Positions 6,391 to 64,000 of a DNA stretch of 64,000 nt are shown piece after piece. The notes beneath the pieces were generated by a model that worked only from the letters and a program-made list of their open reading frames with translations, was not told the DNA's origin and did no database searches. Source of the stretch: Eledone cirrhosa (taxonomy: Eukaryota). Where the stretch lies: positions 46,624,001 to 46,688,000 of the forward strand of contig OZ024746.1 of NCBI GenBank assembly GCA_964016885.1. The letters are read 5' to 3'. Position 1 is the stretch's first letter, and each line of letters begins with the position of its first letter. Position numbers and translations under genes: made by a program.

Positions 6391-6957
6391 TTATTTTCTA
6401 AAGTAGGTGTTATGTGTGTGTGTGTGTGTCATATTATGGTGTTGACATAATGTATAATTAACCATATTTAATGCTGATCTATATTTTTGAATAAACATAT
6501 TTTCCTTATTTATTCGTATTTGTTCTGTTGTATTGTTAGCGCAAAGGTAAAATGGGACGACTTGGAATTTGGGTGTCTTATTACTGGCGCAAATGTCTAG
6601 ATGTGCACTTAGTGGTATCTGTCTCGTGGTTGGATCTCGTAATTGTTGGCGATGAACTTTAATTCTGTTTCTGAGTGTGAGTTTAGTTTGTCCTATATAA
6701 TCTTCATTGCATCCTTTACATTTAATGGCATAAAGTAGATTTTTTGATGAGCAAGTGAAGTGATTTTTTACAGTAAAATTTTGTCCTGATTTAAATGTAT
6801 ACGTGTTGCCTTCAATGAGGTGAGTGCAGGTTCCACAATTAGAGCGACCACATTTTTTGATACTTGGTTGTGGGTTTGTGGTAGGTAATTTGGCATTGGT
6901 GAGTAATGTTTTCAGTGATTTTGGTTGTCTTTTGCTTTTGATTATTGTGTGTTTCAA
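6391..6957 (-). pseudogene. PLE GIY-YIG endonuclease domain with Cys-rich linker
   Basis: CGRSNCGTC...FTCSSKNLLYAIKCKGCNEDYIGQT...RIKVH...KENMFI...LN. Frameshifted relative to the RT ORF. Confidence 0.9.
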
Positions 6958-8722
6958 GGGTTTTTTTCATTCTTGGGGTTTGTTTTAGTAGTGGGATGTT
7001 CTTGTGAATAGTGGTGTAAGCTTCCGCATTTCTTGGGTTGTCTTGAGATATATGATAGAATATTGGACGTACCTTGAATTTGTTTCTGTTTCCGTAATTC
7101 ATCAATGCCTATTGCTTTAGCCCTTTCTATTCCATTATTTATTAGTAATAGTGGGTACTCTCTCTCGAGTAGAATTTCCTTTAATTCTTGAAGTCTTTTA
7201 TTTCGCGTTTCATAATTGGAGACAATTGTGCAAATTCTTCTTGCTAGGTTAAAAGGAATGTTCGTCTTCGTGTGCTTTGGATGGTTGGAGGTGAATAGCA
7301 GATATTGTTTGGAATCTGTTGGTTTGTAGTGTATGTCAGTTTCGATATTTATGTCTTTTTTTAAGATTAAGATGTCCAGAAATGGGAGTTGATCTTCGCT
7401 GTATTCCATTGTGAATTGGATGTGGTTATTGATGCCGTTTATTAAGTTTTTGAAATCCTTCAGTTGGTCGAGTGTGTGGGACCAAAGAATGAGGCAATCA
7501 TCCAAGTAGCGTTTCCAATTCTCTGATAAATATTTGTGGAAGTTCAATCCGTATTTTGATTTGGACTGTTCATATATCTGGACTTCTAAGTATGCCATGA
7601 CTAAGTGGGCATAAGTTGGAGCGGCTTTTGTACCCATCGCAGTCCCCGATATTTGCTTGTAAGTACTGCCATCGAAATCAAAATAGTTGTTCTGTAAGAT
7701 GAATTTTAATCCCTCGGTGATGAAGCTTTTTTCTATTCTGTCAGGTATCTCATTGGGATATTTCTCTAGCCAGAATCCTATTGCTTCTAGTCCGTATTGG
7801 TGTGGGATCGTTGTGTAGAGATTCACTACATCGAAAGACACAATAATAGTGTCGTTGTTGACATGTTTGGGGAGGTGGTTTAAGAGGTTCAGATCGTCTC
7901 TTACAAGGCTTGGTATGTGTTTCAGAATTGGTTTCAGTAGTATGTCTATAAAGTTGCTCAGTCTGTGTGTTTCACATTGTGGGCCCGCTACAATTGGTCT
8001 TAATTTAAGGTCTGTGGGGTATTGTGTGTTCACGCAGGCTGAGGTGGATTGTTTACAGGCATCGTTGATTATTTTACACTTGTGGATCTTCGGAAGTCCT
8101 CAAGGTTGCTGGTTTTGTATTCAACATTTTTTAAATAATCGCGTTCCTTTTAAGTTAGGTCTTCCTGGTATCGATAAATCAGTGTGTTTAATCTGGTCAT
8201 TATTTTTGATTGCTGGTAGTTTTTTACTCTTTCATAGTAATTAGTATTTTGTAAGAGAGAGAACATAGAATGTTTATATTTTTCAGCCTCCATAATGACA
8301 ACAGTACTTCCCTTGTCCGCTTCCTTAATTATAATGTCCGTATTGTTTTTTAGTTCATGGATAATCTCCCATTCCCTTCGACTCGTGTTGGGTTTGGGTT
8401 TAGGTTGCGGTAGTTCATGGTATGGGAAGGTAGCTATGTGGTCACAAAATTTGTCCAGAACTCTGTTTCTACCTTTTGTTGGGTTGTAGCTGCTTTTATT
8501 CCGTACAATTGATTCGTCGTTATTCTCCTTGTCAAAGAATTCCTCTGTGAGACATAATTTTCTACAGAAGTGTGAGATATCGTCATTTATCTCATTGGGG
8601 TTAGAGTATTGTGGTGTTGGTGTGAATTTCAGTCCTTTGGAGAGAAATTTTACTTGTTGGGCTGAGAGGTTTGTATTTGAAAGGTTAATTATTTTCGGTT
8701 TTTCAAAATGGGTTTGTGCCAC
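6954..8722 (-). pseudogene. PLE reverse transcriptase (frameshifted)
   Basis: IINLS...LSKGLKFTPTP, IIKEADKGSTVVIM, GLPKIHK, LRPIVAG, SFDVVNLYT, GTAMGTKAAPTYA, RYLDD, LPFLDILI, HYKPTD. Frameshifts near 8040-8150 and 7000-7050. Confidence 0.93.
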
Positions 8723-9423
8723 CGGGTGTCGTGAGTCCTGTAGCCTTGGTCTAAAAAATGATTTTTCTGGAATGTTTTTTCAATGGTATTATTATATCTA
8801 ATGGTATTTCCCCTGTTGTTGTGTGGTCTTGTATAGAGGTTTCGGACGTATTGAGGTTCGGTTTGTTGATAGTCCGGGTTGTAGATTTTGTTCCTTTGTG
8901 TGGGTTGGGATCTACGGTTTGGGAACAGGCTCTGTGTGGGCAGGGGTCTACGGTTTTGGAATAGGTTTTGTGTGGGTTGTGATCTGCGGATCAGGTCCTG
9001 CCTTGTGTTCGGGGATCTTTGGTTTTTGTTAGTAGGGTTATAGTTTTGTCTATGGTTTCTGGGATTATCGTTATGGTTTTGCTGGGCGTATGTTGGACGT
9101 TTTGTTACTTTTTTTGTCATTTGTTGTGCATGTGGTGTGTGAGTTTTAGTTTGTTTTAAAAATGGGTTACCTGTATGTTGTTCATTTTTGAAGTCCATTT
9201 CGTAGTTGTTGAACCAGGTGGCGTTTTTTTCCCATCGCTGGAGGGATGTTAGTTCTTCATCCTCACAGTTTTCTTTCCAAAGTTTTAGGGGGTTTTTGTA
9301 GAGTAGGCCTTCAGAGTGCTTTGAAATTTCTGTGTCCATCTGTTGGTCGAGTGACTTGAATTTTTCTTCGTTGGAGTTGGCTCTTAATCGCAACAGTTCT
9401 ATTTCTGTTTTAAATTTTTCCAA
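8689..9423 (-). CDS. PLE upstream ORF (coiled-coil plus Q/N/R/P-rich), overlapping the RT frame in -1
   Basis: 244-aa open frame directly 5' of the RT. Ends shortly after CAT TTT TTA GAC. Confidence 0.55.
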   Translation of the reverse strand: MEKFKTEIELLRLRANSNEEKFKSLDQQMDTEISKHSEGLLYKNPLKLWKENCEDEELTSLQRWEKNATWFNNYEMDFKNEQHTGNPFLKQTKTHTPHAQQMTKKVTKRPTYAQQNHNDNPRNHRQNYNPTNKNQRSPNTRQDLIRRSQPTQNLFQNRRPLPTQSLFPNRRSQPTQRNKIYNPDYQQTEPQYVRNLYTRPHNNRGNTIRYNNTIEKTFQKNHFLDQGYRTHDTRWHKPILKNRK

Positions 9424-10136
9424 CGCCAGATTTTCCCTAAGTCTTTATTGGTTTTCTGGTTCATTCGGGATGGGTTTTATTTGGAGTTTTTTTGGGAGGA
9501 TGATTGGGGTAGAGTTTAGCCACTTTTCAGTATATATATATATATAGTATATATATATAGTATATATATATATAGTATATATATATATAGTATATATATA
9601 TAGTATATATATATATAGTATATATATATATATAGTATATATATATAGTATATATATATATAGTATATATATATATAGTATATATATTCAGTATATATAT
9701 ATATAGTATATATATATAGTATATATATATATAGTATATATATATATAGTATATATATATAGTATATATATATATATAATATATATATATAGAGTATATA
9801 TATATAGTATATATATATATATAATATATATATATAGAGTATATATATATAGTATATATATATATATAATATATATATATAGAGTATATATATATAGTAT
9901 ATATATATATATAATATATATATATATAGTATATATATATATAATATATATATATAGTATATATATATATATAATATATATATATAGTATATATATATAT
10001 AATATATATATATAGTATATATATATATAATATATATATATAGTATATATATATATATAATATATATATAGTATATATATATATATAATATATATATATA
10101 GTATATATATATATAATATATATATATAGTATATAT

Positions 10137-14922: not shown

Positions 14923-15139
14923 TGTTATACTTGGGGTGGGTCATATTTGTGTAATATTGCCAGAAGTAGTAACAGAACACACTGACTGTTTGGTTGGTTT
15001 TCGCTTCTCGCTGTCTTTTATATCTAACTTAATCGGTCCTCAATGTCGACATTGACTGACCGACTGTCAAAAATAATACAGATACAATTCGACACACGAT
15101 TTCATATAAAAAACCTCGCTAAACTAATTCAACGCCGCT
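14921..15139. repeat. Short interspersed island, family D (copies at 17381-17599 and a diverged copy at 23341-23535)
   Basis: Identical copy at +2460. Diverged third copy. Always flanked by (TA)n. Confidence 0.8.
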
Positions 15140-15167
15140 ATATATATATATATATAAATATATAGTA

Positions 15168-15216
<49 letters not shown>

Positions 15217-15267
15217 TATATAGTATAATATATATATATATAATATATATATATATGTATATAATAT

Positions 15268-15310
<43 letters not shown>

Positions 15311-15495
15311 TATATATATATATAGTATATATATATATATAGTATATATATATATATAGTATATATATATATATATATTTAGTATATGTATATATATTAT
15401 ATATATATATATATAATATATATATAGTATATGTATATATATAATATATATATATATATATAATATATATATATAGTATATATATATATATATAA

Positions 15496-15532
<37 letters not shown>

Positions 15533-15558
15533 CATATATATATATATATATATAGTAT

Positions 15559-15662
<104 letters not shown>

Positions 15663-15696
15663 TATATATAATATATATATATAGGATATATATATG

Positions 15697-15775
<79 letters not shown>

Positions 15776-15811
15776 GTATATATATATATAGTATATATAT
15801 ATATAGTATAT

Positions 15812-15918
15812 AGGAACCAGTAAGACCCCGACGGCTAATTACCCACTCTAATACCCCAAGTATTGAGTACTTTGGTGCGTTATGGTCCACCTGGTTCCTT
15901 ACCACATTTCCTTCGTTA
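15812..15918. repeat. Short structured island, family E (copy at 18292-18398)
   Basis: Identical duplicate. Bounded by GGAACCAG...CTGGTTCC inverted repeat. Confidence 0.7.
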
Positions 15919-17382: not shown

Positions 17383-17627
17383 TGTTATACTTGGGGTGGG
17401 TCATATTTGTGTAATATTGCCAGAAGTAGTAACAGAACACACTGACTGTTTGGTTGGTTTTCGCTTCTCGCTGTCTTTTATATCTAACTTAATCGGTCCT
17501 CAATGTCGACATTGACTGACCGACTGTCAAAAATAATACAGATACAATTCGACACACGATTTCATATAAAAAACCTCGCTAAACTAATTCAACGCCGCTA
17601 TATATATATATATATAAATATATAGTA

Positions 17628-17688
<61 letters not shown>

Positions 17689-17740
17689 TATATAGTATAT
17701 ATATATATATATATAATATATATATATATGTATATAATAT

Positions 17741-17773
<33 letters not shown>

Positions 17774-17963
17774 TATATATAGTATATATATATATATAGT
17801 ATATATATATATAGTATATATATATATATAGTATATATATATATATATATTTAGTATATGTATATATATTATATATATATATATATATAATATATATATA
17901 GTATATGTATATATATAATATATATATATATATAATATATATATATAGTATATATATATATAA

Positions 17964-18000
<37 letters not shown>

Positions 18001-18026
18001 CATATATATATATATATATATAGTAT

Positions 18027-18121
<95 letters not shown>

Positions 18122-18172
18122 TATATATATATAATATATATATATATATAATATATATAGGATATATATATG

Positions 18173-18226
<54 letters not shown>

Positions 18227-18437
18227 TAATATTATATATATATATATATATATAGTATATATATATATAGTATATATATATATAGTATATAGGAACCAGT
18301 AAGACCCCGACGGCTAATTACCCACTCTAATACCCCAAGTATTGAGTACTTTGGTGCGTTATGGTCCACCTGGTTCCTTACCACATTTCCTTCGTTATAT
18401 ATATTATATATATATATATATATATCGTATATATATA

Positions 18438-18588: not shown

Positions 18589-18619
18589 ATCAAAAGATGG
18601 TTAAAGGAGTTCCATGTAT

Positions 18620-18684
18620 TTTATTATGCGCACTTCAAAAACAAACATCATCATGCAATAATATTTGTGTTTTCATCAGATAAA
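18620..18684 (-). ncRNA. Type I hammerhead ribozyme (GAAA>GAAG variant)
   Basis: Reverse complement: TTTAT-CTGATGA-long stem II-GAAG-TGCGCA-TA-ATAAA. Confidence 0.75.
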
Positions 18685-19894
18685 ACAGGAGAACATGATA
18701 TGAAGGCTAAAAAACACTTGTGGATAGTGCAGTTTTAAATCAACATATGAAAAGTAGTTTTAGATTGATGTGTGATATTGGGAAAAATATTTTATTTAGA
18801 GAGGAGGGGTGGAAAGGATGAAAAAGGGGAGCAGATGAGAGTGAAGGTGGAGAGGGAGAGATGTGTGATAGAGAGAAAGAGATAGTTTTTATAACTGAGA
18901 GAAGATATATTGTTTTACATAGAGAGGTTGAAAACCGTTGGAAGATAATGTATAAATTAAAAGAATTTGAAAATTAACGAAGGGAAAAATATGTACGAGG
19001 AATAAATATTTTATTTAGAGAAGGGGGGGGTGGAAAGGATGAAAAAAGGGGAGGAGATGAGAGTGAAGGTGGAGAGGGAGAGATGGGTGATAGAGAGAAA
19101 GAGATAGTTTTTATAACTGAGAAAAGATATGTTGTTTTACATAGAGAGGTTGAGAACCGTTGGAAGATAATGTATAAATTAAAAGAATTTGAAAATTAAC
19201 GAAGGGAAAGAGAGGGAGTTGATATGTATTGAGATTGAAAAGTTTGAATATAGAGAGAAAAAATAATAATTGCGGATGAATATTCTAACGTCAAAAAGGT
19301 GTATGTTTATAAGTATCATGGCAATTTCAAAATTAACGAAGAGAAAAAATATTAAGGTTTGTGTGTTGAAGGATTTGAGAAAAGTAATGTGAAGTTAAAG
19401 TTTGTATATTGAAGGAATTGATATGTGCGAAGAAAGAGTTAATATGTATTAAAATTATTAAGGTTTGTGTATTAGATGATTTGAGAAAAATAATGTGAAG
19501 TTAAGGTTTTTATATTGAAGGAATTGATAATTTGTGCGAAGAAAGAGTTAATATGTATTAAGAATGAGTTAGTTGATGGAAAGAAGAAAATATATTATTA
19601 AGGATGAATATTCTAGCATCAAAAGGAGAGGGAGTTAATGTATTGAGATTAAAAAGTTTGATGATGGAGAGAAAAAATAATAATAATTGCGGATGAATAT
19701 TCTAACGTCAAAAAAACAAATGTATATGTTATGAAGGATTTTACAAGGTGAAGATAGAATGAGGGTAATGAGTAAACAAGTATTATTGAGTGTATAATGC
19801 CCTTTGAAGTAAGGTAGGAAGATGGGTATATTTTAAAGAGGTGTATGTATATGTGCCTTTGAGAAAAGATTCTAAATTGATAAAGAATTGAATA

Positions 19895-20180
19895 TTAGCT
19901 GTATACTCTGTGAAAAGTCCTATGGAATTTATGCAGGCAGATAGAAAACAAATATATACGTCTATTTATTATAGAATCTAGATTAGAGATAATGGTAAAT
20001 TTTTCATTTAGGCAGAGATTACAGATTTTAGATAGAGAGCTGTTCAAGTATGAGGACGCAGAAGAAACCTTCTTCCAAAAGATGGTATATTTAATGTTTT
20101 TGTCTTTCAAGGACCATATGAGTTCTGAGAGAGCCGTGTTGGTTCTTTTAAGTTTGTATTTAAAAGATGAATGATGATTA
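19895..20180 (-). pseudogene. C-terminal part of a PLE GIY-YIG endonuclease
   Basis: HHSSFKY...TALSELIWSLKD...IFWK...CNLCLNEKFTI...INRR...CLH. Same motif set as 24741, 32515 and 53031. Confidence 0.8.
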
Positions 20181-20951
20181 ATACATATTAACTCTTTCTT
20201 CGCACATATTATCAATTCCTTCAATATACAAACTTTAACTTCACATTATTTTTCTCAAATCCTTCAACACACAAACCTTAATATTTTTTTCTCTTCGTTA
20301 ATTTTGAAATTGCCATAATACTTATAAACATACACCTTTTTGACGTTAGAATATTCATCCGCAATTATTATTTTTTCTCTCTATCTTCAAACTTTTCAAT
20401 CTCAATACATATCAACTCCCTCTCTTTCCCTTCGTTAATTTTCAAATTCTTTTAATTTATACATTATCTTCCAACGGTTCTCAACCTCTCTATGTAAAAC
20501 AACATATCTTTTCTAAGTTATAAAAACTATCTCTTTCTCTCTATCACCCATCTCTCCCGCTCCACCTTCACTCTCATCTCCTCCCCTTTTTTCATCATTT
20601 CCACCCCCCCTCTCTAAATAAAATATTTTTTCCTCGTACATATTTTTCCCTTCGTTAATTTTCAAATTCTTTTAATTTATACATTATCTTCCAACGGTTT
20701 TGAACCTCTCTATGTAAAACAATATATCTTCCCTCAGTTATAAAAACTATCTCTTTCTCTCTATCACCCATCTCTCCCTCTCCACCTTCACTCTCATCTC
20801 CTCCACTTTTTTCATTCTTTCCACCCACCCCCCTCTCTAAATAAAATATTTTTCCCAATATCACACATCAATCTAAAACTACTTTTCATATGTTGATTTA
20901 CAACTGCACTATCCACAAGTGTTTTTTAGACTTCATATCATGTTCTCCTGT

Positions 20952-21016
20952 TTTATCTGATGAAAACACAAATATTATTGCATGATGATGTTTGTTTTTG
21001 AAATGCGCATGATAAA
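20952..21016 (+). ncRNA. Type I hammerhead ribozyme (non-cleavable ATG triplet in this copy)
   Basis: TTTAT-CTGATGA-AAACACAAATATTATT...GATGTTTGTTTTT-GAAA-TGCGCA-TG-ATAAA. Confidence 0.75.
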
Positions 21017-21145
21017 ATACATGGAACTCCTTTAACCATCTTTTGATCTTATATATTATGTATACTCCAGTCCTACAAACTGTAGAATGCTTATTATCCG
21101 ATATCTGCATTGCTTTATTGTACTACAATAAAACTCACCTCCTAC

Positions 21146-24629: not shown

Positions 24630-24667
<38 letters not shown>

Positions 24668-24740
24668 CTATATATATATATATACTATATATATATATAC
24701 TATATATATATATACTTATATATATATACTATATATATAT

Positions 24741-25583
24741 AAGAACTTCCCACCCAACCATAGGTATAGAAATATTCTCAATAGGAACAATATAAAAATA
24801 TCCTTCTCTACTACTCCTAACCTAGCAGACATCATAGGAACAACGAACCACAGTAAGATCACCAAGACACAGCACCTCGACACAGACGCACCTACACCTG
24901 ACAATAACTATATCGGCCTTAACAACTCCCTGGCAGCATCCAATAGTGTTGGCAACGGCATCCGCATCCGCAACCAGAATAACCGCGAAATGACTGGGGA
25001 ACATGGAGAACATGACGTGCGGAATAACAATCGCACCACCCCGCGTGCTGTGGGTTGTAATTGTGCTAACGACAGCTGCGGTAGCGTAGGTAACAACGTA
25101 GGCAGCAACAATGATAGCCTTACCGTGGGAAATAGACGGAACCGCGACAGAAATTGCAACTGCCGCGACAGAGGACGCTGCCCCCTTAGAGGATACTGCT
25201 TGACTGATAGGGTTATATATAGATGCACTATTACTAGCCACAATAGCGTTAAACATTATATAGGGGCCACCTCCGGCCCGTTCAAAATTAGGTTTCGAAC
25301 ACATCTCCACTCTTTCACAAATAGAAAACTAAGGCACTCCACTTCGCTCGCGGACTACATCACATCACTAAAGGACTTAAACATCAGCTACTCCACGCAC
25401 TGGGAGATTGTCGGCAGGGCTGCACCGTACAACTTCAAGAGGAAATGCGATATTTGCCTCATGGAGCTCTACCACATCATAATTGCACCCCACGAGCTCA
25501 TCAACAGCAGAGATGAAACAGCGATAAGTTGTACACATCGCTTAAAAATATCCTTCTTCAGATGGGTTAAGGATGAAGAGTGA
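24741..25583 (+). pseudogene. 5'-truncated PLE ORF: linker plus complete GIY-YIG endonuclease
   Basis: Frame is open from the TA junction: KNFPPNHRYRNILNRNNIKISFS...CNCRDRGRCPLRGYC...VIY...YIGATSGPFKIRFRTH...WEI...CDICLME...INSRDE...CTH. Confidence 0.88.
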
Positions 25584-31806: not shown

Positions 31807-33212
31807 TAAAACAGAAACACAGGTAAGCATTAAGAGAAGGATTTTATCCAGGTATTGACGACCGTTTCATTGGTAAGTGCAACCTTATATTGCTATACTG
31901 CAAATAGCAGCCATTCAATTATAATTGTTGTTCACAGTCCAAATATTCAAATAGTGAGTAAGTTACTCTTGAAATAATTCTTAATATATAGAGAAAAACA
32001 TATATTTGGAATTGTATTTACTAGTATAGAGAGAGAGGAACCAGAAGGTGAGGGGACAAACGGAATAGTATAGAGAGAGAGAAAGGGGGAAGAGGTAGGA
32101 AGTAGAGTGACAAACTGAGATGGGGGAGGGGTAGAGGTGGAAGGATTCTTTGGTCTGTTTTGATAGCTGACTTCATGTCGTGGAATGTAGTGAGTTAAAG
32201 AGAATTAAATTGATCATAGTGGGAGGGGTGGATAGAGAGGGAGAGAGAGGGGGCTATAAAGGGAATAATATATATATATAAAAATAAAGATAAAGATAAT
32301 GACAAAAATAAAAGCAAAGAAGGGGGTGAGAAAGAAGAAAAGAAAAGATAGCCAAGAAGGGGAGAGAAGGAAGGAAGAAATCGAAGAAATAGAAGAGGAA
32401 TGAGGGAGAAGAGGGGGATATATGTATTGGTTTTGTGGGTAATTAAAAGGGTTTAGATACAACAAGAGGGTATAAAGTCTAAGTATATGCAGTTTGTCAG
32501 TTGGTAGTAAGAGGTTAAGGGTTCGATTTGTAGTGCGAAAACTTCTCTTTGAGTCTATGGTTACAATAAATTGATCTTTCGATTTTATTGTTGAGTAACT
32601 TATTCTTCGAACTCAAGATGTGGAACAGCTCAAGGTCGCATAATCGACAGCTTCTCATACCACTCCGATATGGGGGCGCGTTCGATAATTTTTTCCACTT
32701 CAGGGTGTATTGATGGTTACTTTCCCTCAGTTGCCAAGTCTTGTTTACAAAAGTAGTTACATAACTATGCTGGGAATGTTTCATTGCATAACGGTGTGTA
32801 TGCCAACGGGCTTTAAATGTATTCTCAGTCGCTCCGAGTAATGCCATTTCTGGTTATCTGATTCCACTGTGCATTGGTAAACCAGGTTAGACTGCATACA
32901 TTCATTATGTAATGGACAGGTTTCAGGTAGGTGGCAGTTACAATTCTTGTCATGGGCAACTTTGGCATTATTGGTGGGCTGCGATGCCTGTACAAGTGGG
33001 TTACGTTTTGTTTGCCTATTAGCGGGTGGTTGTGTATTAGATATAATACCTGGATAAAATCCTTCTCTTAATGCTTACCTGTGTTTTCTCTTTTATACTT
33101 TATACTCCAAGATTGAACGGAATTCTTACAAACTTGTGGAGTTACGTTGAAACCATCCATGAAACTGCTTTTCTTAACCAAGAACTGGATCACAATAAGC
33201 AATTTTTTGCTT
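31803..33212 (-). mobile_element. 5'-truncated PLE with a short inverted pseudo-LTR segment
   Basis: GIY-YIG remnant at 32515-32950. 31803-31856 is repeated inverted at 33045-33098. Degenerate HHR at 31853-31953. Confidence 0.82.
32515..32950 (-). pseudogene. PLE GIY-YIG endonuclease, frameshifted
   Basis: CNCHLPETCPLHNEC...LVY...HY/GATENTFKARWHTH...TWQLRE...CRLCDLELFHI...LNNKIE...CNH. Confidence 0.85.
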
Positions 33213-48229: not shown

Positions 48230-48342
48230 CATTTGTGTGTACACGTGCTTGTGGCAATGCTATATGTGTGTATGAAGGTCTTATGTGCGACGGACCTTGT
48301 CCAAGATAGTGTTGCTGTTGGAAGTGTAGAGGTAATATATAT

Positions 48343-48976
48343 GTAAGTATGTATATATGTATACGTACATACATATATGTATACAGACGTACAGTAGTAT
48401 GTATATATATACATACATGCACACATATATGTACGTCTGTATACATATATGTATGTACGTATACATACATACTTACATTTAAGTAAGTGCTGTACTAAGA
48501 GTGAGAAATGAAATATCGTTTCATTCTATTCCATTTATTGTTTTCGGTGTGCCCGTCCGACTGAACTCACTCGATATGCAAATTAGGCTGCTCAGCCGTT
48601 AATATGCATAAGGAAAGTATATACTTTCAGACGTTCAACCATCTGGCAGAAAGGTATACGATGCTGACGATAGCTAATAAGCTTGAAACTAGTACATCGT
48701 TCCTGTGTCAGTGTTGAAGAAAAAGGTGACGTGGTTGCCTAAACACTGTACGGCGTAATTCGGGCAGTTTGTTTGTTCACAAACAAACAAACCGAGCATT
48801 ATAATAAATGTTCGGTAAACCGATACGTGCATATATATATATGTGTGCATGTGTGTATATATATACATACTACTGTACGTCTGTTTACATATTTGTACGT
48901 ACGTATACATACTTACATTTAAGTAAGTGCCGTACTAAGAGTGAGAAATGAAATTTCGTTTCATTCTATTCCATTT

Positions 48977-48977
<1 letters not shown>
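48343..48977 (+). mobile_element. Retrozyme-like repeat family R2 (440 bp period, >1 unit, short inverted 5' piece)
   Basis: AAGTAAGTGC recurs at 48481 and 48921. HHR at 48659-48699. No coding capacity. Confidence 0.8.
48659..48699 (+). ncRNA. Type I hammerhead ribozyme (R2)
   Basis: CGATG-CTGACGA-TAGCT-AATA-AGCTT-GAAAC-TA-GTA-CATCG. Stem I extends through CTGGCA..AGG / CCT..TGTCAG. Confidence 0.88.
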
Positions 48978-50425: not shown

Positions 50426-51030
50426 TGTCGAGTCACTCTTGAGTGCTACTGGTAACATGTAACCCAGTACAACCTGTCGGCGACTAGACCTGCAACCCCA
50501 CCAAGTTTACTTGGTGTGGAGGGTGACTTTGCACACCCTGCAGGACAAAAAACAAAACCTAACAAAGGGCTGAAGAACTTATAAGGGGCAACGGCCATCC
50601 AAAAGTGTGTAAATATGTATATACACATGTACATATCTATGTATATGTGTATATACATGGATGCATGTGTATGTATATGCGCGGGGACATAGAAATAGTC
50701 GGGCTGGACACCGGATCGCGCGGTTAAACCACTGGGAGTAAAGGACCCCTAGCCTTTCTCAGGGCATTCTTCTAGGAGAAGGCAACTCAGGAAACTGGGA
50801 TAACTCCGATATAAAACCTGCGGCTCATTAGTTACCGATTATGTTGATCTTTGCTTCTTTTCGGGTTATAGCTACTGTCGCTCAGAGAGTGGGATTGGCT
50901 CAGTGCACAGTCTTTCTTCACTTTAAAAAATATCTTCACGCACAGGCATTGCAAGATAGAATTAATTAATAATTATTAATAATGGTATATCGTGCAATAG
51001 CCATATTCGATAACGAGGGGGCAGCCATCA
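50426..51030 (+). mobile_element. Diverged family C element
   Basis: GTGCTACTGGTAACATGTAACCCAGTACAACCTGTC..., CTAGGAGAAGG, GCACAGGCATTGC and terminal GCAGCCATCA are shared with 1325-1932. Confidence 0.7.
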
Positions 51031-51075
51031 TCACACACACACACACATATATATAAATTTCGTTTCATTTTTTCC

Positions 51076-51130
<55 letters not shown>

Positions 51131-51719: not shown

Positions 51720-51722
<3 letters not shown>

Positions 51723-52222
51723 AACAGAAAAAATGAAACGAAATTTCATTTCCCACTTTTAGTACGGCTGTTACTTAAATATAAGTATGTACACATACAT
51801 ACATATATGTATACAGACGTACAGTAGTATGTATATATATATACATGCACACACATATATATGTACGTATGGATTCACCGAACACTTATTATAATGCTCG
51901 GTGTGTTTGTAAACAAACATCCCGTATTAAGCTGTAGTGTCTAGTAACCATCGTTGCTCGTTTGTTCAACACTGACAAAGGAACGCTGTACTAGTTTCAC
52001 GCTTATTAGCTATCGTCAGCAACGTATACCTTTCTGCCAGATTGGTGAACGTATATACTTACCTCATGCATATTAACGGCTGAGTAGCCCAATTTGCATA
52101 TCGAGTGGGTTAATCGGCCGGGTGCACCGAAAACGATAAACGGAAAAAATGAAACGAAATTTCATTTCCTGCTCTTAGTACGGCTGTTACTTAAATATAA
52201 GTATGTACACATACATACATAT
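51720..52222 (-). mobile_element. Retrozyme-like R2 copy (416 bp period variant)
   Basis: Reverse complement of the 48481 unit. HHR at 51984-52024. Confidence 0.8.
51984..52024 (-). ncRNA. Type I hammerhead ribozyme (R2)
   Basis: Reverse complement: CGTTG-CTGACGA-TAGCTAATAAGCGT-GAAAC-TA-GTA-CAGCG. Confidence 0.85.
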
Positions 52223-52226
52223 AGGT

Positions 52227-52833
52227 ATAAGCTTGAAACTAGTATAGCGTTCCTTTGTCAGTCTTGAACAAACGAGCAACAATGGTTGCGAGAGACTACA
52301 GCTTAATACGGGATGTTTGTTTACAAACACACCGAGCATTATAATAAATGTTCTGTGAATCCATACGTACATATATATATATGTGTGCATGTATGTATAT
52401 ATATATACATACTACTGTACGTCTGTATACATATATGTATGTACCTATACATACATACTTACATTAAGTAAGTGCTGTACTAAGAGTGAGAAATGAAATT
52501 TCGTTTCATTCTATTCCATTTATCGTTTTCGGTGTGCCCGGCCGACTGAACTCACTCGATATGCAAATTAGGCTGCTCAGCCGTTAATATGCATAAGGAA
52601 AGTATACACTTTCAGACGTTCAACCATCTGGCAGGAAGGTATACGTTGCTGACGATAGCTAATAAGCTTGAAACTAGTACAGCGTTCCTTTGTCAGTGTT
52701 GAACAAACGAGCAACAATGGTTGCTAGACACTACGGCTTAATACGGGATGTTTGTTTACAAACACACCGAGCATTATAATAAATGTTCGGTGAATCCATA
52801 CGTACATATATATATATATATGTGTGCATGTAT
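52227..52833 (+). mobile_element. Retrozyme-like R2 copy (435 bp period), inverted relative to the adjacent copy
   Basis: Starts inside an HHR (AAGCTTGAAACTAGTA at ~52229), with a full HHR at 52644. Confidence 0.8.
52644..52684 (+). ncRNA. Type I hammerhead ribozyme (R2)
   Basis: CGTTG-CTGACGA-TAGCT-AATA-AGCTT-GAAAC-TA-GTA-CAGCG, with extension CTGGCAGGAAGG / CCTTTGTCAG. Confidence 0.88.
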
Positions 52834-52926
52834 GAATATATATCTACACACTACTGCCGAATGCTCTGAATCAGTTATAAACATCTATATTTGTTGGATT
52901 TCCAACAAATTAAATATCTTTTCTAC

Positions 52927-53004
<78 letters not shown>

Positions 53005-53006
<2 letters not shown>

Positions 53007-53649
53007 ACGGCAACATCGTTTAAATCTCGATTGTATAGGCATTCTTACTCAATAAAACACCAGAGCCAAAGAAATGTAACAACTTTAGCAGAAAAAGCTT
53101 GGACGCTCAGGGATAGCGATCAAAAGTTTACCCTAAAATGGGAGAAATTAGCTAAAACCCAAAGCTTTTCCAGGAGCCAAAATTTCTGCAAATTGTGTAA
53201 TCTTGAGATTTATTACATAATCACACACAAGAAGAAACTGCTGAATAACAGAATTGAACGAACATTATTCTGCCGTCACAGAACTAAAACCCTTTTTTCC
53301 CACTACAAGCCGAATATTACATAAAAGAAGGACATCCCCCAACTATATAAACCTTAATCTAGTTAGAAAAATATAAAAACAATCTCTTCTCAACATATAT
53401 TAATAACCTTAAATTACCACACTAATAATGGAAAGATATGCTGATGAGAATAGGTGCAAATATGCGATAATGAATGTGTCTAAAAACGTCCATAAGTATG
53501 TATATATATGTGAAAATGTATATAAATAAGTAAATATATATATATGTTTGATGTGTATAGTTAGATGTAAGTTTATTCATGTATTAAAGTGCTTATATAT
53601 ATATATGTATATGTATATGTATATGTATGTGTGTATGTATATATATATA

Positions 53650-54484: not shown

Positions 54485-54488
<4 letters not shown>
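53005..54488 (+). mobile_element. 5'-truncated PLE 3' end (endonuclease fragment, 3' UTR, HHR)
   Basis: ORF 53031-53324 HSYSIKH...TTLAEKAWTLRD...LKWEK...CKLCNLEIYYI...LNNRIE...CRH. HHR at 54331. TA flanks. Confidence 0.82.
54331..54450 (+). ncRNA. Type I hammerhead ribozyme with greatly extended stem II
   Basis: TTATT-CTGATGA-A-ATGACAG...CTGTTAT-A-GAAAC-ACGT-GTC-AATAA. Confidence 0.85.
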
Positions 54489-54545
<57 letters not shown>

Positions 54546-54759
54546 TTAAAAATGTACATCCACATATGTATACTGAAATACTAGTATGCATATGAATACA
54601 CACACGTATACATATGTAGATGTACCAAGTTTTTCAGTGGTCACTTTACTGTGAGTGTCCAGCTATTCTGTATGTAAACACACAGACAAACCGGTTTTTA
54701 GAGTCATACTGGTTTTTGAGGAAACACCTTTCCTCTATTCTCCAGAAAGCCAGACAAGG

Positions 54760-54804
54760 AATATTGAACTAGTTTCGTTGTTGTTATAACTCATCAGCAA
54801 TATT
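54760..54804 (-). ncRNA. Type I hammerhead ribozyme (R3 copy 1)
   Basis: Reverse complement: AATATTG-CTGATGA-GTTATAACAACAAC-GAAAC-TA-GTT-CAATATT. Long distal helix ATTCTCCAGAAAG / CTTTCTGGAGAAT. Confidence 0.87.
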
Positions 54805-55225
54805 TACCTATCTTCCGGCCTTTCTGGAGAATCGTAAAAGCACATATCGTTATATGCTTTTTCTATGAAAATTAGTAGTGGGCAGACTAATTTGCATAGA
54901 GTGTGAGTACGTACCGGTTCAACGGAGACGATAAAAACAAATAACGAAACGAAATTAAATTTCGTTTCGTTTGTAACTCACTTTTGTATGACTGACGCTT
55001 AAACAATTAAGTTAAAAATGTACATCCACATATGTATACTGAAATACTAGTATGCATATGAATACACACACGTATACATATGTAGATGTACCAAGTTTTT
55101 CACTGGTCACTTTACTGTGAGTGTCCAGCTATTCTGTATGTAAACACACAGACAGACCGGTTTTTAGAGTCATACTGGTTTTTGAGGAAACACCTTTCCT
55201 CTATTCTCCAGAAAGCCAGTAAAGG

Positions 55226-55270
55226 AATATTGAACTAGTTTCGTTGTTGTTACAACTCATCAGCAATATT
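55226..55270 (-). ncRNA. Type I hammerhead ribozyme (R3 copy 2)
   Basis: Reverse complement: AATATTG-CTGATGA-GTTG-TAACAA-CAAC-GAAAC-TA-GTT-CAATATT. Confidence 0.9.
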
Positions 55271-55694
55271 TACCTATCTTCCGGCCTTTCTGGAGAATCG
55301 TAAAAGCACATATCGTTATATGCTTTTTCTATGAAAATTAGTAGTGGGCAGACTAATTTGCATAGAGTGTGAGTACGTACAAACGAAACGAAATTTAATT
55401 TCGTTTCGTTATTTGTTTTTATCGTCTCCGTTGAACCGGTACGTACTCACACTCTATGCAAATTAGTCTGCCCACTACTAATTTTCATAGAAAAAGCATA
55501 TAATGATATGTGCTTTTACGATTCACATATATATATATACATCTATATATATACATATATATACACATATATATATATATATATACATATCTATATACAT
55601 ATATATATATATATACATATCTATATACATATATATATATATATATATACATATCTATATACATATATATATATATATATACATATATATATAC

Positions 55695-56958: not shown

Positions 56959-57899
56959 ATGGACTGCATGCAGGAAAAATGTGAAATCAGGAGTCAACGA
57001 AACTGGTCAAAGATGGAACTAGCGGTTTTGATCAAGGGGTGGACCATGGCTGATGGGTCTCCACCAAGCAAAAAGATGGCGGAGAACCTGAAGAGCCATG
57101 GGTTTCTGAGGACCCTGGCACAGATAGCGAGAAAGAGAATAGAAATTGAGAAGGCGTATGTCCTCATAGCGCCTCATATGGCGATGCTAAGCCGTGTCCT
57201 CAGGGAGGAGAAAACCGAAGGGAGGGATGAGGAGAAGGAGAGGGAAAAGGAAGAGGAAAAAGAAAAGGAGGAGAGCACAAGCACGGACCTGAAAGAAAAT
57301 GATATACCCTCCGCCACAGGCAGGGAGGGCAGGCCGGGCAACCAACAAGCTAAGGGCAAAGGTGAAAAGCGAAATCACCTTCCGAAGGAGAACCAAGCGC
57401 AGAGGGACCAGTGGACAACTGTTCAAAGAAAGAACAGAAAGCACTAAGACACTGGGAGCAAAAAACACCAAGTAATGTGCAAGTCTTTCAAGAACGGGAC
57501 ATGCTGGCATAGAGAGACAGGGATGGGATGCAGATTCGCCCACCCTAGGTCTCAAACGAACTATGCCCATCATACTCGCGCAACATGCCCCAGCCAAAGC
57601 CGAAATAAGCCGCTCCAGAAGTATGCTGATGTCGCGGGTGCTGCACCAACAAGGAGAAGGTACGCACATGCCGACGAGATACAGATGGCAGCAGCAGATC
57701 AGAAAATTTTTTAGTGATGGCAGAGAAGATTGTGGGACAGCTGACCTGGCTGCATCGTCTCCAGAGCCAGGGTCATCCACACCAGCACTCGAGACCACCG
57801 CAGTTAAGGGACCCAGAGTGGCCGCCGCTGACACCAGACCAGGTGTCATACCGACAGCCATTACTGGCACCCCAAAAGTCACACCAGTGCTGCTGCTGA
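56959..57899 (+). pseudogene. LINE ORF1 (Myb/SANT-like N-terminus, CCCH finger), with one stop and one probable indel
   Basis: WSKMELAVLIKGW...GFLRTLAQIARK. In-frame TAA at 57445. CKSFKNGTCWHRETGMGCRFAHP, KYADVA. Confidence 0.6.
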
Positions 57900-60859
57900 A
57901 TGTCAGGGGCCTGGTGAAACTCAGCAACATGAGTAAAATTTCCTACCTGGGAAACTTAGCCATAAGCAATCAAGCACTATGCATGGCACTAACCGAAACG
58001 CACCTGACAAGCAGTATAGCAGATGCAGAAATACATATACCGAAATATACTGTATTTCGTTCGGACAGGAAGGAGAGAACTCATGGTGGGGTTGCTCTGT
58101 ATATCCGTGAAGATGTCACACCAATTGTACTGTTGACACATTCAAACTCAGTCTGTGACACACTGATAATACATATGAAGCAACTACAGACGGTAATATG
58201 TGTCACATATCGGCGGCCCGATGCCCCCAGTCATGAGGGTAAATTTGAGGATAGCCTAAGTAGGATAGAAGAGGTCCTTGACAAACTGGACCAGGGTCTC
58301 AACATCCTACTGCTGGGAGACTTCAACCTACCAAAGGTCAAATGGCCTGAGGGCCACCTCCTCCCTGGAATGACGTCAATAGAACAGAGACAGACGGAAT
58401 CCCTGCTGGCCCTCACACACAGGCTGTTCATGGAGCAAGCAATACTCCTCCCAACAAGAGGTGAAAATGTCCTGGACCTCTGTTTTACAAACAACGAAGT
58501 GCTCATCCACAATGTAAAGGTGACACCAACAATTCTCTCGGATCATAACTTAGTAGAGCTAATGACATGTGGTCCAAGAGAACCAACAGAGACAAAACCA
58601 CCAAGAAGCTCAGGGACGCTATCCAACCTTAACTTCTACAAGGCTAACTGGAAAAAGATTAAGAGTGAAATCCGGAAGCAAACATGGAGTGAAAACATCG
58701 CCACACAAGACACTAACACACAATTTCAACACTTCATGACAACGATACACACCATATGCAAAAAGTGTGTCCCGGAGAAAGAGGCAAACAGACACAAAAA
58801 TCTTATTCCCAGAGATAGGAAAATCCTTATGAGACGTAGAACTAAACTCTCAAACCAGTTGAATAGTCAACAAAACCAAAACAAGAAGGAATCCTATTTG
58901 AAACGTGTACTACTTGACACCGAGATTGCACTCAAACTTTCACATGAGAATGAGAGGTCAAAGAAAGAGAACAGGGCCATAGAAAACATTAAAACAAACC
59001 CTAAGGCCTTCTTTAAATTTGCAAAAGAAACTGCCTCAGTACACTGCAAGATTGGACCACTCTTCCACACGGACGGTTCATTAACCGAAAATCCCCAAGA
59101 GATATGTGAAATACTGAACGAACAGTACAAAAGTGTCTTCACATGTCCACTGAGGCACATGCAAATAACGAAGCCAGAGGAGTTCTTTGATGCCACAACA
59201 CTACATCAAGAAATGGCAACCATCAACCACATAGACATAACGGAGGAGGATGTGGTGTACGCCATTGATGAAATTAGAACAGACTCGGCTGCTGGATCTG
59301 ATGGATTCCCAGCAGTTCTCCTAAAAATATGTAAGCGGGCCTTAGCAACTCCACTGAAGATGCTCTTCAGAAGCTCTTTGGCTAGCGGTGTACTACCCAG
59401 GGAGCTGAAAGAAGACACAATATGCCCTATCCATAAAGGAGGTAGTAGAGCGGAGGCCAAGAACTATAGGCCAGTCTCCCTGACGTCGCATATCAGTAAG
59501 GTCATGGAGCGAGTCGTCAGAAAGAAACTAATCACTTTCCTCGAAGAAAATGACCGCCTGACTAGCACGCAACATGGCTTCCGCCCAGGAAGAAGCTGCC
59601 TTACACAGCTGCTACATCACTACGACTGGGTACTGAGACAACTACTAGACAGCTCACATGTAGACGTGATATATCTTGACTTTGCGAAGGCCTTTGACAA
59701 GGTCGACCACGGAATGATATGTCTCAAACTACACGGACTCGGCATAACTGGAAAAGTAGGTGAGTGGCTGCATGGCTTCCTAGGGGACAGAAGCCAGGCA
59801 GTCGCAGCAAATGGGGCCCTCTCGAGGGAAACACCGATAACAAGTGGGGTGCCCCAGGGGACAGTCCTGGGACCACTACTGTTTTTGGTGGCTCTCTCGG
59901 ACATGCCCTCTGTGGTGCATGCAACAACATCCCTCACTAGCTATGCTGATGACACTAAGGTAGCACAGGCAATCAAAAACCCGGCTGACGCTGCCCTCTT
60001 ACAGCAGGATCTGGATGCCATATACAGATGGGCGGAAGAAAACAACATGCAGTTTAATGCTGGCAAATTCCAAGCCCTACAATACAAACCTGCAAACACA
60101 AACACAAATATAGCGGAACACAGCTACACAGGAGCAGGAGGGACCGATATCCCCGTGTCAAAATCGATACGAGACCTGGGCATAGACATGAGCGATGATG
60201 CATCTTTTTCTTCACACATCATGAAGGTGGCGACAACGTCTAGACGATTCGCTGGCTGGATCTTGAGGACTTTCCTTACAAGAGATCGAGACACCATGTT
60301 GACACTGTGGAGGACTTTTGTCCTAAGCCGCCTGGACTACTGCTCCCAGCTGTGGTCACCCCATAGTGTCAAACTAACCACGGAGCTTGAGGCAATCCAG
60401 CGAAGCTACACCAAGAGGATTGCCAAGATGAGGGAGACAAGCTACTGGGAGAGGCTAAAGGAACTGAACCTCTACTCCTTGGAGCGAAGACGGGAGAGAT
60501 ACGCAGTGATCTACATGTGGAAAATCCTGGAGGGACTAGCACCAAACTTTGGCATTGGGAGCTGGACCAACCGTCGAACAGGACGTCACAGTGTGGTGCC
60601 AAAGGTCCCGCCTTCCACATCTAGAATAAGGAGCAGGTATTGCAATAGCCTGGGATTCAAGGGCCCTCAACTCTTCAACAGGCTGCCGAAGCATCTGCGA
60701 GACTTGCATGACGTGGAGGTGGATGTCTTTAAGAAACATCTCGACACCTTGTTATCCAGGATCCAGGATGAGCCCACAGCAAGACACGAGGGAAACCTAA
60801 GGGCAGCAGCAACAAACTCCCTCCTACACCAGTGGCCAACCTATACAGGCTGGAGATAA
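57563..60859 (+). CDS. LINE ORF2: apurinic-like endonuclease plus reverse transcriptase (true start uncertain)
   Basis: LNVRGL, ALTETHL, RSDR..GGVALY, LLGDFN, LDLCF, SDH; [59 protein letters not shown]. No stops over 1098 codons. Confidence 0.95.
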
Positions 60860-61440: not shown

Positions 61441-63337
<1,897 letters not shown>

Positions 63338-63437
63338 AATATAGACATAGAATATTCGAAAATATTCTGTATGTTTATAATAAACATTTTGAAGACCTAA
63401 TCGCTATAGAATAGAATACGTCACGTATTACAATTAG

Positions 63438-63526
63438 ATTCTCGATAAAAGCAAGGGAAGTAATCTACGCGTTTCATTCTCGTTAGAAATCATCAGGACT
63501 ACATATCCAGTGCTTTTATCGAGAAT
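63438..63526 (-). ncRNA. Extended type I hammerhead ribozyme (R1 copy 1)
   Basis: Reverse complement: ATTCTCGATAAAAGCA-CTGGATAT-GTAGTC-CTGATGA-TTTCT-AACG-AGAAT-GAAAC-GC-GTA-GATTAC-TTCCCT-TGCTTTTATCGAGAAT. Confidence 0.9.
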
Positions 63527-63747
63527 GACACAGCTAGAGACTTATAGAATACTTAGCTGTGTACAGGAACTGGTTTGAAAGAGCGGTTGCCGGTCCGGCA
63601 GAAATTAGAAATTGGAATAAATGCTCTGAAATAGCGATATATATGTGAATATAGACATAGAATATTCGAAAATATTCTGTATGTTTATAATAAACATTTT
63701 GAAGACCTAATCGCTATAGAATAGAATACGTCACGTATTACAATTAG

Positions 63748-63836
63748 ATTCTCGATAAAAGCAAGGGAAGTAATCTACGCGTTTCATTCTCGTTAGAAGT
63801 CATCAGGACTACATATCCAGTGCTTTTATCGAGAAT
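63748..63836 (-). ncRNA. Extended type I hammerhead ribozyme (R1 copy 2)
   Basis: Same as copy 1 except CTGATGA-CTTCT. Confidence 0.9.
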
Positions 63837-64000
63837 GACACAGCTAGAGACTTATAGAATACTTAGCTGTGTACAGGAACTGGTTTGAAAGAGCGGTTGC
63901 CGGTCCGGCAGAAATTAGAAATTGGAATAAATGCTCTGAAATAGCGATATATATGTGAATATAGACATAGAATATTCGAAAATATTCTGTATGTTTATAA

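Follow-up and report, generated by a model that had tools for sequence, protein, structure and literature searches.

What kind of element is a short repeat that carries hammerhead ribozyme motifs and hardly any coding capacity, and how could it have entered a TA microsatellite? This question is raised by a 983-bp insert, here called R3 (35% GC), which occupies positions 54542–55524 inside (TA)n within a 64,000-nt stretch of TA-rich animal genome DNA, the window analysed throughout. The original prediction had proposed a non-coding RNA copied by a Penelope-like element (PLE) reverse transcriptase (RT), and with longest Met-initiated ORFs of only 19 aa (sense) and 50 aa (antisense) and recurrent internal joins to (TA)n, this is also the reading that we favor: R3 is most probably a protein-free type I hammerhead retrozyme inserted into (TA)n by a borrowed PLE endonuclease and RT (probability roughly 0.8). 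R3 has a high copy number, recurrent internal ends joined to TA and an inverted head. Its parts are arranged as follows (window coordinates).

54488–54541, no strand: (TA)27 target microsatellite, left flank
54542–55007, minus strand: full 466-bp R3 unit, with the RNA-sense 3′ end of this copy at 54542 (ACTTA/TATA)
54737–54832, minus strand: downstream type I hammerhead, with its cut predicted between 54767 and 54766
54767–55232, minus strand: predicted cut-to-cut 466-nt monomer, 35% GC, 66% paired, z = −11.2
54931–54936, minus strand: main RNA-sense 3′ end of other R3 copies, TTTTA then (TA)n
54943–54971, minus strand: perfect 13-bp hairpin, 12 nt upstream of the main insertion end
55008–55380, minus strand: partial second R3 unit, 373 bp, 5 differences from the first
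55203–55298, minus strand: upstream type I hammerhead, with a perfect 5-bp stem II and its cut predicted between 55233 and 55232
55369–55380, no strand: inversion junction with 3-bp microhomology, in an imperfect inverted repeat (partner arm 54973–54981)
55381–55524, plus strand: inverted 5′ segment, 144 bp, ending 4 nt into the hammerhead distal helix
55525–56013, no strand: TA/CA microsatellite, right flank

The head-to-tail part of the insert spans 1.8 units (839 nt, 54542–55380), and its period of 466 is evident from the comparison of 54542–54914 with 55008–55380 (5 differences in 373 bp). As predicted, the orientation flips at 55380 for about 145 bp: positions 55381–55524 are the reverse complement of 54829–54972 with a single difference in 144, a CpG-type change at 55504. 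The whole insert does lie within TA repeats, with pure (TA)27 on the left and 489 bp of TA with CA interruptions on the right. No ORF for RT plus GIY-YIG, the mark of an autonomous PLE, is present in 54542–55524. No tRNA gene was found in the 64-kb window, and Pol III boxes in R3 were matched only with one mismatch, for which reason we do not propose a promoter.

On the minus strand, two CTGATGA cores begin at 55263 and 54797, exactly 466 bp apart, and the 7-bp stem I (AATATTG/CAATATT), the GTT cleavage triplet and the perfect 13-bp distal helix (55286–55298 with 55203–55215) named in the original prediction were all recovered, together with a bulged 3-bp extension in both hammerheads. The description of these hammerheads as canonical holds for the core and for stems I and II in general; it does not extend to stem III, which is no more than the palindrome ACTAGT, 2 bp that enclose a 2-nt loop, or to stem II of the downstream copy (54737–54832), which contains one mismatch. 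A strict hammerhead descriptor matched twice in R3 and never in 2000 dinucleotide shuffles. The best Rfam ribozyme match was Hammerhead_HH9 (RF02275; 33.6 and 30.5 bits, E 2.3e-6 and 2.4e-5), which shares with R3 the type I topology and an extended, bulged stem I, whereas stem III is 5 nt shorter in R3; the HH9 gathering score of 52 is not reached, so the R3 hammerheads are not HH9 members. At gathering threshold, Rfam gave 0 matches across the window, and miRNA/sRNA matches at E-value level were rejected as hairpins only. The R3 monomer is predicted to fold far better than chance (z = −11.2; 0 of 100 shuffles as good), with 66% of its positions paired as a circle; stem III does not form in the lowest-energy folds. 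Palindromic stem III is described in the available text of PMC6765202 as typical of PLE hammerheads, which likely cleave as dimers, and the R3 hammerhead appears to be of this dimer type. In the experiments described in the preprint text (bioRxiv 10.64898/2026.07.22.740005), nine retrozyme dimers from Xenopus yielded only one that cleaved in vitro, so activity of the R3 ribozyme cannot be assumed; with an intact core and a minimal stem III, its self-cleavage is predicted only.

The original prediction had also counted R3 as a third repeat family of the window. The 466-bp repeat is real; unrelated to its neighbors it is not. R3 aligns end to end with the R1 repeat at 48335–48977 (292 of 426 positions identical, 68.5%; score 353 versus 161 ± 11.5 in 200 shuffles) and, judged by this alignment, is a colinear diverged sister of R1. 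Within the hammerhead, 8 of 22 pairs are changed on both sides (a count over 5 sequences of 2 families, not a probability) around an almost invariant core, and these compensatory changes demonstrate that the predicted structure has been conserved between R3 and R1. A hairpin related to that at 54943–54971 is found at the homologous place in R1. More distantly, R3 aligns with a 310-bp hammerhead repeat at 63326–64000 (score 67 versus 23–33 for reversed and complemented controls).

Several of these relatives have features of their own. The R1 copy at 48335–48977 has a 440-bp period, one hammerhead with a GTA triplet, an inverted head that ends near the site homologous to the end of the R3 copy, and a 3′ end made of the hairpin plus TTTA followed by (CA)n(TA)n. 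A 27-bp R1-type terminal fragment, from hairpin arm to TTTA, lies in microsatellite at 51054–51080, and at 51720–52856 two R1 subtypes, about 89% alike, stand head to head with a 3-bp microhomology joint at 52227–52229 and about 70 bp of unassigned sequence before (TA)n. The tandem 310-bp repeat carries minus-strand hammerheads with palindromic stem III, a GTA triplet and a distal helix related to that of R3, and runs off the window. Another TA-inserted non-coding repeat (50426–51040, with related pieces near 1393–1494) gave no hammerhead in our scans, and matches to it were rejected as TA-rich only.

To place the copy in the window among others, one R3 period (54800–55265) was compared with four public sequencing runs (X1, X4, X5 and X23). 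The unit is present in 20 of 24 public runs listed, and none of the 24 is an RNA run containing R3; the runs that contain it bear 17 organism labels in all, and presence in them is no evidence of host range, since library carry-over suffices to explain the low-depth runs and is not separable from real presence there. Contigs with the unit numbered 1,169 in X1, 39 in X5 and 1 in X4 (counts not convertible to copy number), and its depth in X1 was very high; X23, with R3 in 0 of 12,836,656 raw reads, counts as no test. Searches of JGI metagenomes gave 0 matches to the R3 hammerhead pattern and 0 to a degenerate R1/R3 pattern, and 33 core-pattern matches in IMG/VR were rejected as chance, since their stem I never exceeded 2 bp and BLAST matched none of them to R3.

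Among the nine loose ends listed (33 further ones are unlisted), four are (TA)n junctions. Within this list, (TA)n joins R3 before 54931 in 12 X1 contigs and 1 X5 contig, before 55000 in 4 contigs and behind 55218 in 1. The main site, 54931–54936, is internal in the copy of the window, where it lies 12 nt past the perfect hairpin and 302 nt from the predicted ribozyme cut, and we infer that it is a reverse-transcription start site. It aligns with the microsatellite boundary of three of the five R1 pieces (48977, 51080 and 51721), a position that was fixed before the R3 junctions in the runs were examined, and all compared 3′ ends of R3 and R1 read TTA then microsatellite. The copy in the window ends at 54542 (equivalent to 55008), 225 nt beyond the predicted hammerhead cut, 77 nt from 54931 and 8 nt from the site at 55000. 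Against a strictly fixed site stand the R3 ends at 54542 and 55524 and two of the five R1 pieces; also to be counted against PLE mobilization are the spacing of the recurrent R3 sites (69 nt, longer than the 30–40-bp PLE tail) and target-site duplications that are unreadable inside TA.

These junctions bear on the possibility that R3 is a satellite spread at the DNA level, by unequal crossover or extrachromosomal circles, with the hammerhead as a dead relic. The very high depth in X1, a hammerhead activity that is only predicted and the local tandem amplification discussed in the text of bioRxiv 10.64898/2026.07.22.740005 would suit such a history. We nevertheless consider it highly improbable, given TA-joined ends that recur at homologous positions across two families only 68.5% identical and compensatory changes around an almost invariant core. 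Copies confined to satellite blocks, lacking TA-targeted insertions, were looked for as the outcome that would speak against the original prediction, and this is not what was found: other R3 copies join (TA)n.

Could R3 instead be the pseudo-LTR of an autonomous PLE, and the locus a 5′-truncated stack of its terminal repeats? PLE insertions are mostly 5′-truncated, the R3 hammerhead is of the palindromic-stem-III type reported for PLEs (PMC6765202, available text), and 24 of 57 Xenopus retrozyme families are homologous to 22 TEs, 21 of them PLEs, according to the preprint text (bioRxiv 10.64898/2026.07.22.740005). Yet the R3 units abut head to tail without an ORF, the single X4 contig closes on itself, no non-TA continuation shared by many contigs occurs among the nine loose ends listed, and R3 has no link to the six PLE flank regions tested in the window; we therefore regard this origin, as opposed to an independent non-autonomous family, as unlikely.

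PLE remnants are present in the window, which counts for PLE mobilization of R3. A frameshifted RT + GIY-YIG PLE with a Neptune-type zinc finger lies at 6391–9444 (minus strand); its best relative is 80% identical, and its named mollusc relatives (mussels and oysters) are 53–58% identical, which makes a mollusc the probable host. Endonuclease-like remnants with Hydra-type motifs were observed at 24642–25583 (plus), 32515–32853 (minus), 53004–53324 (plus) and 19895–20245 (minus); none of the four has a Pfam match, and their motifs (CxCX5C in one, CxxC and CxH) appear to resemble those of the Hydra clade, which targets TA according to the available text of PMC8557442. Partial hammerhead-like cores follow three of the four (near 25582, 31870 and 53440), and at 18619–21017 inverted 220-bp tandem repeats surround a GIY-YIG remnant between (TA)n flanks, a PLE-like inverted terminal structure. 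No sequence link of R3 or R1 to PLEs was found in the six PLE flank regions tested in the window, and an apparent similarity between R1 and sequence on the 3′ side of the GIY-YIG remnant at 53004–53324 (score 78) was rejected as low complexity (reversed and complemented controls, 66–69). The window further contains an apparently young LINE, with a 1127-aa stop-free EN+RT frame at 57476–60859 (plus), and exact duplicated blocks (14925–15908 versus 17385–18387) with an N gap near 16.0–16.3 kb, a possible assembly duplication.

The long EN+RT frame at 57476–60859 makes a LINE a candidate for mobilizing R3 in place of a PLE, and the inverted head has a counterpart in L1 twin priming, which is known to produce inversions with 1–4-bp microhomology. 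Against this, the R3 ends are internal to the tandem RNA (225–302 nt from the ribozyme cut), R3 has neither poly(A) nor a common LINE tail, a masked self-comparison gave no R3–LINE match, and there is an 86-bp overlap between the inverted piece and the direct one. Mobilization by a LINE thus seems very unlikely, and a PLE is the enzyme source that we prefer.

We also weighed whether the inverted head could be artefactual, a product of assembly or of fold-back in the library, as might be suspected from the N gap near 16 kb, the exact duplicated blocks of the window and an inversion joint that is listed in none of the compared runs (contigs drop rare forms). The mirror, however, ends after just 144 bp, bears its own CpG-type change at 55504 and then gives way to a different microsatellite, and two R1 loci in the window are likewise head to head; we therefore attach almost no credence to an artefact.

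The strand switch itself falls at 3 bp of microhomology inside an imperfect inverted repeat that belongs to the unit. Ranked by duplex energy against all 4,682 pairs that have 3-bp microhomology, this junction is in the top 194 (4%), which is modest support. Together with a stop 4 nt into the distal helix, it would fit a cDNA that folded back on the preceding unit and stalled when it reached the helix. At the R1 locus 51720–52856, however, the two joined pieces are about 89% alike and the second arm, at 630 bp, is too long for self fold-back, so two templates were used there. A PLE is described as extending both target strands, with internal RT starts at two sites (PMC11167929, available text), and extension of this kind could yield both the R3 locus and the R1 locus.

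The sequence of the units offers a further view of the template. Their five differences are departures from the R3 family majority: at three of these positions, nearly all X1 and X5 sequence has the letter of the first unit, and no variant is listed for the other two. The differences therefore appear to be specific to this locus. At 8 sites that are polymorphic in the family, both units have the same allele (P ~0.03 if the sites are independent, higher with linkage). This likeness fits a single template and about 0.7% of subsequent ageing, and does so equally for a circle and a homogeneous array. X4, under another organism label, yielded one 496-nt contig of period 466 and depth 4.5 that closes on itself and carries two letters rare or absent in X1; it is either a circle, a uniform DNA array or carry-over, and contigs cannot show RNA.

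Under the preferred reading, R3 tandem copies would be transcribed, and paired hammerheads would cut as dimers to release 466-nt monomers, possibly circularised. A PLE protein would then nick (TA)n and prime cDNA at the internal UUA just 3′ of the hairpin, rather than at the ribozyme cut, and RT would copy past two cut sites for 839 nt (1.8 units), which would need a circle or an uncut multimer. We lean slightly towards a circle; as hammerhead cleavage is dispensable for an Anolis PLE, with unprocessed RNA as its main substrate (PMC11167929, available text), a linear template is possible too. Finally, the cDNA end may switch strand at the unit's inverted repeat to generate the 144-bp inverted head, either because it folds back on the preceding unit or because it encounters another cDNA whose synthesis was primed from the opposite strand of the target. 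A bolder scheme, in which R3, R1 and the 310-bp repeat would be an old viroid-like clan of circular RNAs that cross between hosts, use hairpin plus UUA as the start signal for a Hydra-clade PLE RT and insert by rolling-circle target-primed copying, is unlikely; if it were true, the self-closing, single-haplotype X4 contig would be such a circle.

The elements closest to R3 are the animal non-LTR retrozymes (Cervera & de la Pena 2020, PMC7229834), described in the available text as non-coding tandem units with one type I hammerhead, GC below 45%, high self-pairing and PLEs in the same genome, for which PLEs have been proposed as mobilisers. R3 combines at least two consecutive type I hammerheads with low GC, a non-coding, self-paired sequence and many copies, and on these sequence features it is an animal non-LTR retrozyme as defined in PMC7229834. 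Its 466-bp unit lies just above the 150–450 bp given there and within the 51–972 bp given in the text of bioRxiv 10.64898/2026.07.22.740005, and its short stem III resembles that of amphibian retrozymes, unlike most invertebrate ones. PLE copying of hammerhead RNA is the published model for these elements (PMC7229834; bioRxiv 10.64898/2026.07.22.740005, as far as the available texts go), and a PLE origin is the title claim of the latter (Li, Clavereau & Pollet 2026).

In its insertion features, R3 also resembles EN+ PLEs (Hydra, Neptune and Poseidon; PMC8557442 and PMC11167929, available text), with which it shares a partial tandem, an inverted 5′ copy, a (TA)n target, a palindromic-stem-III hammerhead and internal start sites away from the ribozyme cut, whereas it lacks an ORF, spaces its sites by 69 nt rather than within a 30–40-bp tail and has no partner link found. 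Partial tandems, inverted 5′ copies, tails and a (TA)n bias are all reported for PLEs in the available text of PMC8557442, which agrees with the earlier statement that a partial tandem with an inverted 5′ segment is typical of their insertions; R3 has both, along with recurrent internal ends at an AT-rich target. Non-autonomous elements of Chlamys such as MRC1 (PMC8557442, available text) are likewise non-coding PLE passengers with head-to-tail insertions, but they come from algae, their 3′ ends are the same as those of their autonomous partners, and most of their clade lacks hammerheads. No paper devoted to an R3-like octopus or cephalopod family was found in the open-access literature searched. 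The text of bioRxiv 10.64898/2026.07.22.740005, supplements aside, contains no analysis of internal ends, TA targeting or inverted heads, and the terms 'inverted', 'microsatellite' and 'target site' are absent from the main text of PMC7229834.

R3 thus adds a member to the animal retrozymes and is no new class of element. For animal retrozymes, the mobilising enzyme and its use of circles are still argued from co-occurrence and pseudo-LTR similarity; R3 contributes evidence at the level of junctions, namely a putative start site that two sister families have in common, a TA target and inverted heads. It also documents, in a natural setting, the formation of PLE-type inversions, and it supplies an exactly defined substrate on which to test a PLE protein in vitro.
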